Notes under the pieces: model-generated | Database searches by the model: none | Seen by the model: the letters and a program-made list of their open reading frames with translations, nothing else | Told to the model about the DNA's origin: nothing | Shown: piece by piece, positions 272-40,761 of the stretch | Layout of the letters: the number at the start of each line of letters is the position of its first letter | Numbering within the stretch: position 1 is the stretch's first letter | Position numbers and translations under genes: made by a program | NCBI GenBank assembly: GCA_964403585.1 | Contig: CAYOFQ010000001.1 | Coordinates: 896,680 to 960,679 of the forward strand | Direction: 5' to 3' | From: an uncultured Gammaproteobacteria bacterium | Lineage (GTDB): Bacteria; Patescibacteriota; Microgenomatia; JALYQM01 | Length of the DNA stretch: 64,000 nt

Positions 272-346
272 TGGAGCCTGGAGCGGGGATCGGACCCGCG
301 CTCTCAGTCTTACCAAGACTGTGCTTTACCACTAAGCTATCCAGGC
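272..346 (-). tRNA. tRNA-Thr (anticodon GGU)
   Basis: Reverse complement reads GCCTGGATAGCTTAGTGGTAAAGCACAGTCTTGGTAAGACTGAGAGCGCGGGTCCGATCCCCGCTCCAGGCTCCA. Cloverleaf has a 7-bp acceptor stem, D-arm, anticodon stem CAGTC/GACTG with loop TTGGTAA (anticodon GGT), T-arm GGGTCCGATCCCC and encoded CCA. Confidence 0.8.
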
Positions 347-7614: not shown

Positions 7615-7688
7615 GGCCCCGTCGTCTAGCGGCCTAGGACGCCAGGTTTTCATCCTGGAGATCAGGGGTTCGATTCCCCTCGGGGCTA
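7615..7688 (+). tRNA. tRNA-Glu (anticodon UUC)
   Basis: GGCCCCGTCGTCTAGCGGCCTAGGACGCCAGGTTTTCATCCTGGAGATCAGGGGTTCGATTCCCCTCGGGGCTA; anticodon stem CCAGG/CCTGG, loop TTTTCAT (TTC); T-arm GGTTCGATTCC; CCA not encoded. Confidence 0.8.
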
Positions 7689-36027: not shown

Positions 36028-36642
36028 ATGAAAAAACTAGTTATCGCCAGCCAAAACGCAGCCAAAATAAAAGAGTTCGCCGAATTCTTATCGGATCTTC
36101 CTCTTGAAATTGTTTCTCTCACGGATCTTGCTATTACTGATGACGTCGAAGAAGACGGTGAGACATACGAAGCTAACTCTCAAAAAAAAGCTTTGTTTTA
36201 CGCTCATAAGAGTGGACTCCCCGCCATATCCGATGATGGCGGTCTGGAGATTGCGGCACTTAACGGGGAACCGGGCGTAAAAACAAAACGGTGGTTGGGG
36301 TATGAAGCAACTCAAGAAGAATTAATGAATAATATGCGAAAAGTAGCACTCGCGCTTCCCGAAAATAATCGCCAGGCGCAATTCAGAACCGTTGTTACCG
36401 TTGCACTGCCTGATGGCAGATTCTGGAGTGTGGAAGGTAAGTCAGTCGGTATAATTGCCAGAGAACCCTACAAGAATGCACTGAACGGGTATCCCTACCG
36501 TGCATTTTTCTTCCTTCCCGATATAAATAAATACCACCACAAAGATGAATTAACTGCTGAAGAACAAAAGAAATATAATCACCGTCTTATTGCAATAGAA
36601 AAACTCAAGGGAGTAATAGCTAAGGAAATTATCCCCGAATAG
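36028..36642 (+). CDS. rdgB: non-canonical purine NTP pyrophosphatase (Ham1/RdgB ITPase)
   Basis: 204 aa; MKKLVIASQNAAKIKEF...ETYEANSQKKA...ISDDGGLEIAALNGEPGVKTKRW matches Ham1 family motifs. Confidence 0.8.
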   Translation: MKKLVIASQNAAKIKEFAEFLSDLPLEIVSLTDLAITDDVEEDGETYEANSQKKALFYAHKSGLPAISDDGGLEIAALNGEPGVKTKRWLGYEATQEELMNNMRKVALALPENNRQAQFRTVVTVALPDGRFWSVEGKSVGIIAREPYKNALNGYPYRAFFFLPDINKYHHKDELTAEEQKKYNHRLIAIEKLKGVIAKEIIPE

Positions 36643-37432
36643 CACAGACACGAACTTCTCTCGTATTGTTATCGCCGTCAAAAACTATATGAGTATAACC
36701 CCGTGCTTCGAGCTGTGCCCGCATTTGCTCAACAGTGAATGTTGCCTTAGGCGCAGAGACAGCCGAAGGATTGACGGTTTGATCATTAAGGAAATCAAAA
36801 AGTACTACACCACCTGGTCGGACTATTCTCGACATTTCATCAAGGAACGTTCCACTTAGTTCGGAGCCAACATGAGAGACGACAATCCCTCTACTTATAG
36901 CATAATCAACTGAACTGTCAGGTAAAGGAATACTTGTCGCTGATGCAGGTAGGGTAACGGCATCGGGATATTTTCCTGCTGCAATAGCAAGCATTTCAGG
37001 GGCTATGTCGAGCAAATATAACCGACTTACCTTCCCGGCAAGTGGTCGTGTTGCTTCTGCAGTACCGCAACCAATATCAATACCCGTTCCTGCCTGGGCT
37101 AAGGAGCCAAAAACATCGCCGGCGAATTTATTAAATCTCGCGTAAGTCGCAGCCGTGTAGTGATCAGAGCGTTTAATTTGCTGATCCCATGTGGCAGCTC
37201 TTGAGCCCCACCGAGCGGCTAATGAAGCCAATGATTCAGTAGTAGAAATTCCTTCAACAATAGGCCGGATACTTGGTGCCTGATCAGCCTGCGCACTGCC
37301 TGTCTCGGAAGTAGTAATGTTTTCTTTTGTCGCCATAGATGTCGGGGATAGTATCATTGTAATTTCTAAAAAGCAATGGCTTAATATCCTTGATTTTTCT
37401 AAACAGTTTGATATACTCGCCCAATTGTACAA
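36629..37432 (-). CDS. class I SAM-dependent methyltransferase (start uncertain)
   Basis: Motif I GIDIGCGTAEATRP, post-I acidic LLDIA, motif RPGGVVLFD. Alternative starts MILSP (37357) and MATKEN (37336); none has a clear RBS. Confidence 0.6.
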   Translation of the reverse strand: MYNWASISNCLEKSRILSHCFLEITMILSPTSMATKENITTSETGSAQADQAPSIRPIVEGISTTESLASLAARWGSRAATWDQQIKRSDHYTAATYARFNKFAGDVFGSLAQAGTGIDIGCGTAEATRPLAGKVSRLYLLDIAPEMLAIAAGKYPDAVTLPASATSIPLPDSSVDYAISRGIVVSHVGSELSGTFLDEMSRIVRPGGVVLFDFLNDQTVNPSAVSAPKATFTVEQMRAQLEARGYTHIVFDGDNNTREVRVCAIRG

Positions 37433-37467
37433 TCAATAGCTGGAGTATCAGCGGAATTCGAACTAGC

Positions 37468-38121
37468 ATGAAAATCGACCGAAATATTATAGCAGTGCTC
37501 GGGATTAATGGCGTAGGCAAGACGACCATCATTAACAATGCACTTGCATATGCTCCGGAAGGAAGTGTCGCCTTTAATGCTGCTGATTTAATGCTTGCTT
37601 ACCTAGGGCTGGAAAGCAGAAGTCAGCTTGAACAAGTCCCCTCAGCTATTAAAGAGGAAGCTCGCCGGGACTCCATTCTGCATATGGCAAGACAATATGC
37701 GGATCGTCCACTGGTTTTCCTCGACACCCATATGCAAATTGGAATAGGCAAGGGTACGGAACGTACAAAACATGTGACATGGGCACCGGAATTTAACCTC
37801 ATTATTGCGAAAGGAATTTTTATCCACGGCTGCACTGACGACATCCAAATGAGAAGGTCTCAGCGACCAGGGGGTGGCCGGAGCCTGGATCCAATGACAA
37901 TTCAGGCTGATCAGGCTGAAGAACTGCAATTATTCGAGGCTATGGTTTCAGGCGAAGTACCAACTTCCCGTATTTTTAATCCTCAGGATCAACTTGATAC
38001 TACCGTTGCCTTATTTTTAGCCGAACTGGGCATTAGCAGATTCCGCAGGGTAGAAAGTCAGCAAATTCTCCCGGTATCTCTTGAATCACAACATACTCCA
38101 AGATACGGAAAGGAATTCTAA
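37468..38121 (+). CDS. archaeal-type adenylate-kinase-like P-loop NMP kinase
   Basis: From ATG 37468 (ORF track over-extends to 37390). IAVLGINGVGKTT Walker A, LDTHMQIGIGKGT and IHGCTDDIQMRRSQRPGGGRSLD segments align with archaeal AdkA (VDTHSTV...; [22 protein letters not shown]). Confidence 0.5.
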   Translation: MKIDRNIIAVLGINGVGKTTIINNALAYAPEGSVAFNAADLMLAYLGLESRSQLEQVPSAIKEEARRDSILHMARQYADRPLVFLDTHMQIGIGKGTERTKHVTWAPEFNLIIAKGIFIHGCTDDIQMRRSQRPGGGRSLDPMTIQADQAEELQLFEAMVSGEVPTSRIFNPQDQLDTTVALFLAELGISRFRRVESQQILPVSLESQHTPRYGKEF

Positions 38122-38127
38122 ATTCAT

Positions 38128-38523
38128 ATGAAAACGATCGACAAATTGAGTTTCGTAACTATCAAGGACCGTAAAGTTTTATTTGTTTTAGAGAAAAATA
38201 ATACGATCTGGTATACCCCGGGTGGTAAGCGCGAAGAAGGTGAACTTGATCATGAAACCTTACTGCGCGAGACTAAAGAGGAACTAAATATCGATTTGGT
38301 TCCCGAATCCATTTCTCACATACATACGATAACCGTTGAGTCAGTCGATAAACCTGACGTGATGGTAAATCTTATCTGCTACACCGCAGAATATTCGGGA
38401 GAAATAAACCCTCAAAATGAAATTGAAAAAGTTGCCTATCTTACACATAGTGACACCCACCTTGTAGCACAAGGCGGGAATTTACTGCTTCAGTATTTAA
38501 AACAAAACAATCTTATTGATTAG
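38128..38523 (+). CDS. Nudix hydrolase
   Basis: 131 aa; Nudix box GGKREEGELDHETLLRETKEELNI (Gx5Ex7REUxEExGU). Confidence 0.7.
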   Translation: MKTIDKLSFVTIKDRKVLFVLEKNNTIWYTPGGKREEGELDHETLLRETKEELNIDLVPESISHIHTITVESVDKPDVMVNLICYTAEYSGEINPQNEIEKVAYLTHSDTHLVAQGGNLLLQYLKQNNLID

Positions 38524-38551
38524 TATTATTATTTTTTTATAGGAGAAATAT

Positions 38552-39289
38552 ATGAAAGTATATTTAGATAATTTTGGGTATCAAGTACATGGAGAGACTA
38601 TCGGTGAGATGTGGCTCTCATTGGTTGATGCAGTTATCTCACATGGCACCCATAGTTTAGACGAGGACCGCGACCGGATAGCCCTGCAAAATATTCGGGT
38701 CCGATCGTCACAACAGAACTTTGATGATCCAATCATCGCAAAGTACGGGAAAAAAGAAAATGTTGACGCAATCATCAATTTAACCTTTCAGGAAGCAAAA
38801 ATGACCGACATCGACATCAAGCCAAGCTTTAGCCCAGGAGCTAAAAGTTATTTCCAGCGCATTGTTGAAGGTCGAATGGTAGAGTTTGTGATTAAGCGGT
38901 TAAGCATGATTCCTGAAAGCAAAAAAGCGGTTATTGTCTTTCCTACATACGAAGACTACGAGGCAGTGCTGAAGACTCCAAAAGATGACTACTTACCATG
39001 TATTGTATCTATTCAGTTTAGACTGATGCCGGTTGAGAATGGTGCATATGTTCTTGATACCACATTCTATGCACGCTCACTTGATATTTTCCAAAAAGGG
39101 TACGGAAATTTTGTGGCTATCACATTGCTCTCAAAAAATATCGCCCAGGAAATATCTAAAAACCTGGGAGTTCCTGTTACCTTAGGCTTTCTCGACGGGC
39201 TTATTGCTGACGCTCATGTTTACGGTGAATTAACTACTAAAGCAGAAGAAACTTTGACACAGGCTAAAACCGACGGCGATTTAAAATAA
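38552..39289 (+). CDS. divergent thymidylate-synthase-fold enzyme (ThyA / dUMP-hydroxymethylase family)
   Basis: 245 aa. Aligns by eye to ThyA landmarks: DRDRIALQNIRVRS ~ DRTGTGTLSIFGHQMRF; ESKKAVIVFPT ~ DSRRIIVSAWN; catalytic-Cys region DYLPCIVSIQF ~ LAPCHAFFQF (His replaced by Ile); RSLDIFQKGYGNF ~ RSCDVFLGLPFNI (Asn kept, so uracil specificity); ADAHVY ~ GDTHLY. Confidence 0.55.
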   Translation: MKVYLDNFGYQVHGETIGEMWLSLVDAVISHGTHSLDEDRDRIALQNIRVRSSQQNFDDPIIAKYGKKENVDAIINLTFQEAKMTDIDIKPSFSPGAKSYFQRIVEGRMVEFVIKRLSMIPESKKAVIVFPTYEDYEAVLKTPKDDYLPCIVSIQFRLMPVENGAYVLDTTFYARSLDIFQKGYGNFVAITLLSKNIAQEISKNLGVPVTLGFLDGLIADAHVYGELTTKAEETLTQAKTDGDLK

Positions 39290-39376
39290 ATCAGAATCTG
39301 TACACTATCACGATATCTGTTACAAATTACTATAATGAGGCTTCTTTGCAAGCCTCATTATAGTATAAATAATTAG

Positions 39377-39952
39377 CTATTTATCCAGACTACATTGGCC
39401 AGTATGCCACGCACTAGGATTTACTGCATATAGTGTGCACCATAATTCCTTAGCCGTCTGAGTGTATAAGGTCGGAAAAATCTTAGCCTTCCTAAACTCA
39501 TACCAATTCTCTTTGAAACTATTACCCTGACTAGATTGTTCCATTATCTCCAAATCTACATCCAAACTATCCGCATCTCTTACAATTTTGGCTTCTTTCG
39601 ATTCCCTTTGTTCAAATTCAACCCATAATGCAAACAGTTCTGCCTGGAATACTGTGTCCGACAGAATATCTTGTAATGCACTATTATCGTTTCTGTTCGT
39701 GTAATACCTGGCAACATAATGGCAATCTCCGGTTCGAACTTCGGGCACGTCATGAATAAGAGCCATCTTCATAAGCTTTTCTGTATTTACTTTCTCCTCA
39801 TAGCTTGCTAGCGTTAAGGCTATCCATAACACTCGTAGCGTATGCTCACTAACATTGGCAACATGTGGAGCAAGAAATTGTCGCCAGGTACGCTGCACCA
39901 GACGTAAAGTTCCTATTTCATAGAGAAATACCGCATTTCTTTTGTAATTCAT
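39377..39952 (-). CDS. HD-domain 5'-deoxynucleotidase (YfbR-like)
   Basis: 191 aa; RTWRQ...NVSEHTLRV...ALIHDVPEVRTGD HD motif pattern typical of YfbR/HDDC2. Confidence 0.7.
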   Translation of the reverse strand: MNYKRNAVFLYEIGTLRLVQRTWRQFLAPHVANVSEHTLRVLWIALTLASYEEKVNTEKLMKMALIHDVPEVRTGDCHYVARYYTNRNDNSALQDILSDTVFQAELFALWVEFEQRESKEAKIVRDADSLDVDLEIMEQSSQGNSFKENWYEFRKAKIFPTLYTQTAKELWCTLYAVNPSAWHTGQCSLDK

Positions 39953-40053
39953 TAGTTACTTTGTAGTACAAATAACAGGAATAAAAAAGTCGAGACAACT
40001 TTAGTCGAGAAGAGTCGACTGGAATTTGAATAGAAATAAGATAATATAGGGGC

Positions 40054-40761
40054 ATGAAACATCCACATCCTACACAAATGGGGATTCTGAAGAAGTTAGT
40101 CTTTGCCGAGTCACTCAGGTATACGGAATTAAAACCCACCGAGGACCTGGAAAATAACACATTCGATTTCCATCTCGACCAATTAATAGCACAAAAATTT
40201 ATCGTTAAACACGACGGCAAGTACAAACTTACCAACATAGGCAAGGAATACGCAGGAAGAATGGATACCGAAAAAGCGCTTATAACCAACCAGGCAAAGG
40301 TATCAGTGCTTCTTTTTGCAACCAAGGAGATTAACGGCGAATTGTATTATCTTATTTACACCCGACTAAAACAACCGTTTTACGGCGCTCAAGGTCTCAT
40401 TTCCGGGAAGGTCGGGTGGGGAGAGAAAATAATTGACGCCGCCGAACGCGAACTGTTTGAAGAGTCAGGATTAGTAGGCAAAGCAGAAATTGCAGGGATG
40501 AGACACTACATGGTAAAAAACGAAAATACCACTGAACTACTAGATGACAAAATGATGTTTTTTTGTATTTTCCGTAATCCGCGTGGGGAAATAGTCGCAG
40601 GAGACGAGGGTCGCTATGAGTGGGTAGCGCAAAGTAAAATAAATTCGTTCATTACAAAACCTATAGAAGATGATTTGGATATTTTGTTTGATAACCTGAA
40701 CAAATACAATGGTACGAACCTTTTTATAGAAGAATTTGAACATGTTACAGATAAATTCTAA
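40054..40761 (+). CDS. winged-helix-Nudix fusion protein
   Basis: 235 aa; N-terminal ~70 aa wHTH-like (GILKKLVFAESLRYTEL), C-terminal Nudix box GKVGWGEKIIDAAERELFEESGL. Confidence 0.65.
   Translation: MKHPHPTQMGILKKLVFAESLRYTELKPTEDLENNTFDFHLDQLIAQKFIVKHDGKYKLTNIGKEYAGRMDTEKALITNQAKVSVLLFATKEINGELYYLIYTRLKQPFYGAQGLISGKVGWGEKIIDAAERELFEESGLVGKAEIAGMRHYMVKNENTTELLDDKMMFFCIFRNPRGEIVAGDEGRYEWVAQSKINSFITKPIEDDLDILFDNLNKYNGTNLFIEEFEHVTDKF

Follow-up and report, generated by a model that had tools for sequence, protein, structure and literature searches.

A rare thymidylate synthase-like clade with a remodelled co-substrate pocket and a conserved operon context in Patescibacteria and DPANN

We analyzed a thymidylate synthase (TS)-like protein encoded in a 64,000-nt stretch of DNA (the window) from an uncultured bacterium assigned to Patescibacteriota, Microgenomatia (GenBank assembly GCA_964403585.1, contig CAYOFQ010000001.1, positions 896,680 to 960,679). 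The YchF protein of this organism has its best named relatives in WWE3 and Microgenomates (55-58% identity). The TS-like gene, with AGGAG at 38541-38545, 6 nt upstream of its ATG, is located as follows:

38552..39289, plus strand: TS-like gene, an open reading frame (ORF) of 245 aa with an ATG start; by sequence comparison and modelling, its product is of the Asn type and belongs to a rare clade of archaeal-type homologues of TS from the Candidate Phyla Radiation (CPR) as well as DPANN.

With a probability of about 60%, this protein is a C5-modifying pyrimidine-mononucleotide enzyme performing the committed step of a horizontally mobile modification operon, and not an ordinary thymidylate synthase. 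It combines an intact nucleophile and nucleotide site with a remodelled co-substrate pocket, and three alternative types of "finishing" enzymes (QueC-like ligases, methyltransferases, and ANL/PCP proteins) are linked to members of its clade. The protein is not assigned to ThyA, methanogen-type TS, hydroxymethylases or flavin-dependent hydroxylases, since at least one tested defining feature of each family is lacking; it appears to be new within the TS superfamily, and its genomic context suggests a pathway not yet described.

The similarity to TS far exceeds what chance would give. Pfam PF00303 matches with E=3e-07 and 30.3 bits (gathering cut-off 24.3), covering residues 110-239 only, and the AlphaFold2 model built with 26 homologues has the TS fold (predicted local distance difference test 95.2, predicted TM-score 0.92). 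The preliminary description of this gene, made by eye from the sequence alone, had proposed a TS-fold enzyme with a catalytic Cys, a length of 245 aa and a highly divergent N-terminal region, and all three observations hold: the Cys is invariant in the family (see below), the length is confirmed, and the N-terminal 110 residues can be aligned to ThyA neither by hidden Markov models (HMMs) nor by hhalign. The top NCBIfam match is the methanogen-type TS model TIGR03283 (E=1.9e-09), with a score of 37.4 bits over residues 12-226, which does not reach the equivalog cut-off of 174.55. The cut-offs of canonical ThyA equivalogs are missed as well (26.1 vs 327 for NF002495, 17.1 vs 108.35 for TIGR03284). 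A sequence search of PDB with the single protein yielded no usable relative, and one with the family profile yielded only a marginal match to ThyA. Among phages, tblastn matches are only 22-29% identical, the top one being a methanogen-virus TS.

Residue conservation was counted over 73 full-length family members. The profile alignment to E. coli ThyA, proposed in the preliminary description, succeeded by hhalign for the C-terminal half only, and a bridging alignment via methanogen-type relatives extended the mapping. Invariant in 73/73 are C150 (C146 in E. coli ThyA), R175 and S176 (R166, S167), D178 (D169), D220, H222 and Y224 (D205, H207, Y209), and Y100 (Y94). Other positions are also invariant, while being changed relative to ThyA: K124 and K125 occupy the positions of R126 and R127, the partner-subunit phosphate clamp (Arg126'/Arg127'), D146 and Y147 those of A142 and L143, Q181 and K182 those of L172 and G173, and R157 that of Y153; G185 (F176) is changed and nearly invariant. 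Moreover, Q165 of ThyA is replaced by Ala. The nucleotide is predicted from these sequences to be bound by R40/R42, K124/K125, R175, S176, D220, H222 and Y224, with C150 as the nucleophile and N186 as the base-specificity residue.

Most of the ThyA motifs listed earlier are indeed present: D39-R40-x8-R49, L148-P149-C150, R175-S176-L177-D178, G183-Y184-G185-N186-F187 and D220-A221-H222-V223-Y224. The exception is the "SxRxxxxxWN-like" segment, which is matched only loosely by PESKKAVIVFPT (P121-E-S-K-K-A-V-I-V-F-P-T), with neither the Arg nor Trp-Asn, and with Lys-Lys at the position of the ThyA Arg-Arg. The replacement of His by Ile directly after the nucleophile (I151, aligned with H147), highlighted as an altered active-site context, is real as well, though minor, since this position is Ile, Leu or Met family-wide and is not among the published specificity markers.

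The departures from ThyA that we consider important are the Lys-Lys pair in place of Arg126/127, D146, Y147 and K182 near C5, and the lack of Glu58, of the Trp80 equivalent and of the lid. Glu58 is called extremely conserved in the study of MilA, being retained in TS, dCMP hydroxymethylases (dCH), dUMP hydroxymethylases (dUH) and MilA (PMC5175136), and the "E..W" helix that contains it is kept in all four of our references (E. coli ThyA, T4 gp42, SPO1 gp29, RB69 gp48). In our mapping, which at this position is based on sequence only, the aligned residue is N76, and the family varies here between Arg, Asp, Lys, Asn and Glu. The Trp80 position is variable. The C-terminal lid is absent: the 40-50 residues closing over folate are missing, and the chain ends about 20 residues past DAHVY. 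Residues D146, Y147, K182, Q181 and R157 are located at, or adjoin, positions within 6 A of C5. Thus, bacterial and eukaryotic ThyA (PF00303) share with the TS-like protein the fold, the Cys, and the equivalents of R166, S167, D169, N177, D205, H207, Y209 and Y94, but not Glu58, Trp80, the C-terminal tail, the linkage to folA (see below), or an N-terminal part alignable by HMM.

Published specificity markers were read as follows. Asn186 is the uracil signature, as was stated in the preliminary description. The position three residues before Cys, which distinguishes methyl from water transfer, is occupied by Leu in ThyA and by Asp/Glu in T4 dCH, SPO1 dUH and RB69 gp48 (PMC13326640); here it is Tyr147, with the invariant Asp146 one position earlier. 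The marker of the flavin type, D169N, is absent. The sugar markers are split, Ser176 (S167) being of the deoxy type and Lys124 (R126') of the ribo type seen in MilA/BcmA.

Some of these features would fit a methylene-tetrahydrofolate-dependent (d)UMP 5-hydroxymethylase, similar to SPO1 gp29 or to a uracil version of MilA/BcmA, with the hydroxymethyl group serving as a handle for methyltransferase, kinase or glycosidase-type partners. In particular, the active site is open and without a C-terminal lid, as in T4 dCH and MilA (PMC5175136), Lys124 matches Lys133' of MilA/BcmA, and the invariant Asp146 adjoins the L143 position. Moreover, at one locus (L084) a TS~Nudix fusion gene is followed by SLOG and then methyltransferase genes, an operon paralleling the MilA/MilB logic (PMC5175136). 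The MilA/BcmA pathways likewise comprise a TS homologue, then a nucleotide N-glycosidase-type enzyme (SLOG or NDT-like in our loci), and a methyltransferase. The operon is also in line with the logic of the BcmA/B/C bacimethrin pathway. However, the diagnostic acid three residues before Cys (Asp in T4 dCH and SPO1 dUH, Glu in RB69 gp48) is Tyr, Glu58 is absent, and it is not obvious what a QueC-like partner would do with a hydroxymethyl group. The CMP 5-hydroxymethylases MilA/BcmA (PDB 5jnh) share the Lys at the Arg126' position, but the N177, S167 and L143 positions of MilA hold Asp, Ala and an acid, where the TS-like protein has Asn, Ser and Tyr; MilA also has Glu68 and a large C-terminal domain, where the TS-like protein has no Glu58 equivalent and no extension, the identity being 16-18%. 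The dUMP hydroxymethylase suggested in the preliminary description is thus opposed by the Tyr and the missing Glu58, and we regard this function as unlikely.

Most host lineages of the family are anaerobic fermenters, which argues against a flavin-dependent pyrimidine C5 hydroxylase similar to phage AfhB or RB69 gp48. Asp178 is invariant in 73/73 with no D169N (PMC13326640), the window protein has N186 and not Asp, and the identity to 9iqc is only 14%; the structural similarity that speaks for such an enzyme can be explained by the shared minimal core, so this reading is extremely improbable. Generally, phage dNMP enzymes (T4 gp42, SPO1 gp29, RB69 gp48/AfhB; PDB 6l18, 9iqc, 9iqu) share short TS cores and open active sites with the TS-like protein, and their pathways bring together a pyrophosphatase for dNTP, a homologue of TS and a kinase for dNMP, following the logic seen in the operons described below (PMC13326640). 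Still, phage enzymes have retained the helix with Glu58 as well as an acid at the third position before Cys, the flavin type in addition having D169N, while the TS-like protein has none of these. Moreover, the clade is cellular, and its QueC-like or methyltransferase partners are not known in phage pathways.

A word-indexed search yielded 605 relatives of 240-260 aa and 50-58% identity, mostly auto-named "thymidylate synthase" or "hypothetical" and mostly coming from Patescibacteria and DPANN bins, with few from others. In an exhaustive search of representatives, the clade is compact and is separated by a gap from relatives of 24-35% identity, which score best on the methanogen-type model. Scans with two conserved peptide patterns, whose counts are lower bounds, confirmed 82 loci in 185,579 species (one genome each), 187 in 241 million metagenome records and one in 2.9 million viral contigs. 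The published CPR survey covers 4,581 genomes (PMC11974145), and counts this low mean that the clade is not the general thymidylate synthase of CPR bacteria. It also occurs in Alphaproteobacteria, Parvibaculaceae and Holophagaceae contigs of up to 610 kb.

The base-specificity residue is Asn at 119 and Asp at 26 of 145 loci. Asp-type members group together in a clade of Saccharimonadia, human-associated Saccharibacteria among them, and the Asp goes along with changes at several other positions. Cultured Saccharibacteria (Nanosynbacter-like strains) carry the Asp-type module. As Asp at N177 is the signature of cytosine nucleotides (PMC13326640, PMC5175136), these members cannot be dUMP-to-dTMP synthases. 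One locus (L073:9274-10717) carries two tandem TS-like paralogues, both Asp-type; the first (212 aa) is methanogen-type-like and lacks the Tyr209 equivalent (SAHVV), and the second is a normal family member. Among distant relatives, P0168 (489 aa) consists of an MtrA-like (corrinoid-protein-like) domain, an archaeal-type TS core and a C-terminal "PterinBD-DUF4346", which suggests that some short TS cores receive a one-carbon carrier via separate domains, and P0171 (427 aa) has an unannotated N-terminal domain of 200 aa. The contig of P0161 (L169) has its enolase, phosphoglycerate mutase and thioredoxin genes broken into many short ORFs, pointing to either a non-standard genetic code or an assembly of poor quality. 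A methanogen-type-like TS homologue (P0169, contig L170) lies on an apparent conjugative/integrative element with a TrwB/TraG-like coupling protein and an integrase.

Among named families, the methanogen-type TS (TIGR03283, MJ0757-like) is the nearest, and the TS-like protein shares with it a short core of about 200-245 aa without the C-terminal lid, "PESK" in place of DSRR, Tyr at L143, and "D..xK...N" with Lys at G173. The TIGRFAM description is said to note that the full reaction of the methanogen enzyme was never reconstituted. The invariant Asp146, Lys125 and Gln181 are specific to the TS-like clade, which, in contrast to that family, is found in CPR, DPANN and sporadic other bacteria and not in methanogens, and has both Asn and Asp subtypes.

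The conserved gene context was foreseen by none of the three functions suggested earlier (a bona fide ThyA of archaeal/CPR type, a dUMP hydroxymethylase, a folate-independent variant) and is the main new information. ORFs were called in 80 genome loci and the window and clustered, domains were mapped with locally built HMMs, and names were confirmed by Pfam/NCBIfam. Within five genes of the TS-like gene, the 77 genome loci contain a QueC-like PP-loop protein in 53 cases, Nudix in 30, AAA_17 P-loop kinase in 29, Ham1-like in 25, CYTH in 17, NDK-like in 13, NDT-like in 10, Methyltransf_11 and thymidylate-kinase-like in 8 each, SLOG in 5 and HD in 3. The commonest order is TS, QueC-like, one of CYTH/Nudix/Ham1, kinase. 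At 86 loci of both data sets the QueC-like gene is directly 3' of the TS-like gene on the same strand, all gaps being at most 30 nt and most genes overlapping. The independent metagenome set (45 loci of at least 4 kb) repeats the pattern, with QueC-like at 32 loci and CYTH at 22. QueC-like and methyltransferase partners are nearly exclusive, both being present at one locus only.

Natural fusions connect the same components: TS~Nudix (P0123, the protein of locus L084, and P0162), QueC-like~Ham1 (L014, P0325, P0335), Ham1~methyltransferase (L066, L067, L074) and Ham1~methyltransferase~Ham1 (L076). Overlapping Ham1, TS-like and QueC-like genes recur in clades sharing as little as 25% (P0160) and 32% (P0138) identity with the query, and the linkage of the TS-like protein with its partners is ancient and tight. 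These divergent-clade triads lie at L167:5447-7463 and L172:4432-6537, the former having ThiF-like E1 and Prok-JAB genes directly downstream on the opposite strand. At P0134 the TS-like gene is followed by SLOG, while in the Alphaproteobacteria, Parvibaculaceae and Holophagaceae contigs SLOG precedes it, accompanied by an ANL adenylase, PCP-thioesterase proteins and DUF2332, all of these genes being on one strand at L093. Next to the L084 operon (L084:4894-8423) are genes for two N6/N4 DNA methyltransferases and for a restriction enzyme of the EcoO109I type, together with a SocA/Panacea gene of toxin-antitoxin type, so that the setting resembles a defence island.

No DHFR (folA), GlyA, Dcd (dcd), Dut (dut) or ThyX gene was found in about 120 neighbourhoods, unlike the canonical 313-aa ThyA of Southlakia, a cultured saccharibacterium, which adjoins folA, dcd and tmk. 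This bears on the main conservative alternative, a bona fide archaeal, methanogen-related thymidylate synthase, for which Nudix, Ham1 and CYTH proteins would substitute for dUTPase/dCTPase, giving dUMP (e.g. from NTP-reducing ribonucleotide reductases), while the kinases would make dTDP and dTTP. Besides the absence of folate-linked neighbours, it is opposed by the score of 37 bits against a cut-off of 174.55, by the rarity and patchiness of the family, including its presence in non-CPR bacteria amid specialized-metabolism genes, by the Asp-type subfamily and by the absence of Glu58 (PMC5175136), and it leaves the coupled QueC-like ligase, methyltransferase and SLOG partners unexplained. In its favour are the relation to TIGR03283, the retained Asn186, Tyr100, Asp178 and bulky residue at L143, thymidylate-kinase-like genes adjacent at 8/77 genome and 3/45 metagenome loci, and the commonness of folA, glyA and folD in CPR genomes. 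The suggestion of a ThyA of archaeal/CPR type therefore holds as far as the nearest named family is concerned, but as a function it is rather unlikely, given the score, the rare clade and its Asp subtype.

The most frequent partner forms a family as compact as that of the TS-like proteins, with 93 matches, which are auto-named QueC. It keeps the SGGxDS loop, the PxRN motif and the four-Cys zinc site C(x)7CxxCxxC, as QueC, Cap9 and QatC do, but differs from them in the substrate-facing motifs YxQxHxxE and YPDC, defined for QueC (PMC13329287), and scores at most 28 bits against QueC cut-offs of 150-378. The structure closest to it is Cap9, with QueC also among the closest. The reaction of QueC and Cap9/QatC is adenylation of a carboxylate, which is then ligated to ammonia or to an amine of a protein (bioRxiv 10.1101/2025.04.06.647259; PMC13279940). 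The TS-associated subgroup is absent from the text of the 2026 QueC-family survey. The possibility that this partner merely aminates C4, converting uracil to cytosine, is disfavoured, as it accompanies both Asn and Asp subtypes. A 7-deazaguanine or Cap9/Cap10-like system, considered in view of a Tgt gene upstream in oral Saccharibacteria, was rejected, since Tgt is limited to one tight species group and the window's own Tgt is 25 kb away.

All three alternative partner types belong to classes commonly acting on carboxylates: the QueC-like protein is structurally nearest to the carboxylate-amine ligases Cap9 and QueC (bioRxiv 10.1101/2025.04.06.647259; PMC13329287), the best named matches of the methyltransferase are to the carboxyl O-methyltransferase BioC, and ANL and PCP-thioesterase partners occur in the non-CPR loci. 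Together with the near-exclusivity of QueC-like and methyltransferase genes (53 vs 8 loci), this would suit a folate-independent C5 carboxylase or carboxyalkylase, in which CO2 or an alpha-oxo acid (e.g. glyoxylate) is attacked by the C5 carbanion, the carboxylate then being amidated (QueC-like), methyl-esterified (methyltransferase, as in the window) or thioesterified (ANL/PCP). We keep such chemistry under consideration because of the loss of Glu58, folate contacts and lid, the invariant new polar or cationic residues around C5 (D146, Y147, K182, Q181, R157) and the carboxylate-handling partner classes; the folate-independent variant mentioned in the preliminary description is likewise compatible with the altered pocket. 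A precedent is LarB/LarE, in which a PP-loop enzyme follows the Cys-assisted carboxylation of a ring. Nevertheless, this reading is entirely inferential, methanogen-type TS homologues likewise have Lys at G173, Methyltransf_11 and ANL enzymes take many types of substrates, and no such carboxy-pyrimidine nucleotide is known from the host organisms. Asp178, equivalent to the pterin-binding Asp169, is invariant, while flavin-using relatives lost Asp169 (PMC13326640). We therefore consider carboxylation doubtful. Similarly tentative is the view of the TS-like/QueC-like pair (TS-like/methyltransferase here) as an ancient two-enzyme system, in which a folate-free TS fold would add a carboxylate-bearing group and the partner would convert it to an amide, ester or thioester.

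The neighbourhood of the TS-like gene in the window contains the following features:

36028..36642, plus strand: Ham1/RdgB-family NTP pyrophosphatase (Pfam, 138.6 bits).

36629..37432, minus strand: S-adenosylmethionine (SAM)-dependent methyltransferase (Pfam Methyltransf_11; best NCBIfam matches weak and BioC-type).

37390..38121, plus strand: P-loop kinase (AAA_17, archaeal adenylate-kinase-like), 6 nt 5' of the Nudix gene, homologous by blastp to kinases of the other loci.

38128..38523, plus strand: Nudix hydrolase (Pfam PF00293), 28 nt 5' of the TS-like gene.

39330..39363, no strand: perfect 14-bp inverted repeat with a 6-nt loop, read from the DNA between the convergent TS-like and HD genes.

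39377..39952, minus strand: HD-domain YfbR-like 5'-deoxynucleotidase (Pfam HD_3 and YfbR-like), convergent with the TS-like gene.

The kinase, Nudix and TS-like genes are thus co-directional, with gaps of 6 nt and 28 nt. The Nudix protein has weak NCBIfam matches to pyrimidine dNTP diphosphatase and MutT and is homologous by blastp to the Nudix domain of the P0123/L084 fusion and to Nudix genes of L066, L067 and L074; it is presumably a pyrophosphatase converting (d)NTP to (d)NMP and feeding the TS-like enzyme. The kinase, presumably the nucleotide kinase of the module, has its P-loop starting 39 residues into the listed ORF, and its true start is probably an ATG near 37468 (MKIDRN...) and not the listed TTG. 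The methyltransferase is 38% identical (E=4e-46) to that of L084 and 31-35% identical to methyltransferase halves of the Ham1~methyltransferase fusions, the homology beginning near residue 66; its real start is probably also downstream of the listed TTG. As both TTG starts are probably too far upstream, the 43-nt overlap of these divergent genes is likely an artefact. No QueC-like gene is present within the 64-kb window, and, since its methyltransferase, Nudix and kinase are homologous to genes of the modules elsewhere, the locus represents the methyltransferase variant. The Ham1 protein (PRK14822, 149.8 bits against an NCBIfam cut-off of 234) is nearer to canonical RdgB than Ham1 proteins of the other loci, so its membership is probable and not certain. 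The HD nucleotidase, associated weakly (3 loci only), is a possible member converting dNMP to the nucleoside. Although not reported by a simple scan for terminators, the hairpin formed by the arms of the inverted repeat (ctataatgaggctt / aagcctcattatag) probably terminates transcription in both directions and closes the operon.

A winged-helix (DUF7347/HTH_45) and Nudix fusion (40054-40761), encoded a short way downstream of the HD gene, could be a nucleotide-sensing regulator of the neighbourhood. The lowest G+C content among 2-kb bins of the window is that of 38001-40000 (0.391 vs 0.40-0.48 elsewhere), where the TS-like/HD segment may have been acquired horizontally or the intergenic DNA may merely be AT-rich. 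The only gathering-level Rfam matches in the window are two tRNA genes, at 275-346 (minus strand) and 7615-7688 (plus strand).

From the fold, conserved residues, altered pocket, operon linkage and fusions observed here, we infer an order of steps, the sugar of the substrate and the nature of the C5 group. The enzyme would be a dimer, with addition of Cys150 at C6 of the uracil in (d)UMP enabling C5 to attack an electrophile. A co-operonic Nudix (and Ham1) pyrophosphatase would first provide the (d)NMP substrate from (d)NTP, the TS-like enzyme would then install the C5 substituent, and the SAM-dependent methyltransferase, elsewhere mostly the QueC-like ATP-dependent carboxylate-amine ligase, would alter the product further. 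Finally, the P-loop kinase would re-phosphorylate the product, while the HD nucleotidase could dephosphorylate it; the pathway may alternatively end with release of the base. Since Asp178 (Asp169) is invariant, we would guess at a one-carbon unit as the C5 group, either hydroxymethyl or methyl and delivered by a pterin-type donor, though another electrophile is possible because the donor pocket is so changed. Such a pathway would resemble phage hypermodification, MilA/MilB and the bacimethrin pathway, but in cells.

Several observations weigh against a dedicated modification operon. Plain dTMP synthesis is suited by the retained Asn186, by the bulky Tyr at L143, as in methylating enzymes and methanogen-type TS, by the thymidylate-kinase-like neighbours at some loci, and by the wide occurrence of folA, glyA and folD in CPR. 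Neither ThyX motifs nor canonical ThyA occur in any of the loci or in the window, a sample too small to establish genome-wide absence. The Ham1 of the window resembles ordinary RdgB, its methyltransferase lies on the strand opposite to the TS-like gene, and the flanking genes are unrelated housekeeping ones; thus, part of the module could be a general nucleotide house-cleaning neighbourhood, similar to the Maf-Nudix-NDK-like-Ham1 cluster of Southlakia, which contains no TS-like or QueC-like gene. Moreover, a literature search found no paper on this clade, nor on TS linked to QueC, Ham1, Nudix or SLOG, on TS-like proteins with PP-loop enzymes, or on MJ0757.

SLOG partners are typical of nucleotide-centred conflict systems, and the module could accordingly be viewed as a defence system in which the QueC-like protein conjugates a nucleobase to a protein, as Cap9 and QatC act, or in which nucleotide pools are depleted or poisoned. 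This would agree with Cap9 being the structure nearest to the QueC-like partner, with a patchy distribution resembling horizontal transfer, and with the restriction-modification and toxin-antitoxin genes beside L084 and the conjugative element carrying P0169. However, the TS-like protein matches no PADLOC model, housekeeping genes surround the window locus and most others, the family is nearly absent from viral contigs, and the N-termini of the TS-like proteins are variable, which makes this explanation very improbable.

To our knowledge, TS-fold enzymes start every known pre-replicative pyrimidine modification, namely dTMP, 5-hydroxymethyl-dU/-dC, 5-methyl-dC and, since 2025, 5-hydroxy-dC, and each new branch of TS has brought new nucleic-acid chemistry. 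As automatic annotation names clade members "thymidylate synthase" and the partner "QueC" in hundreds of CPR/DPANN bins, metabolic reconstructions may credit these organisms with two functions that they do not possess. The translationally coupled TS-like/QueC-like pair, strictly kept across clades of only 25% identity and accompanied by fusions to NTP pyrophosphatases, is a testable case of an unknown nucleotide pathway, and the ultra-small symbionts concerned include human oral Saccharibacteria, which are now culturable. If the enzyme is an ordinary dTMP synthase after all, it defines a minimal TS core working without Glu58 and the folate lid. Should the carboxylate chemistry prove true, the pyrimidine nucleotides made by CPR, DPANN and a few other cells would include a new modified class, to be used in DNA, RNA or a small-molecule product.

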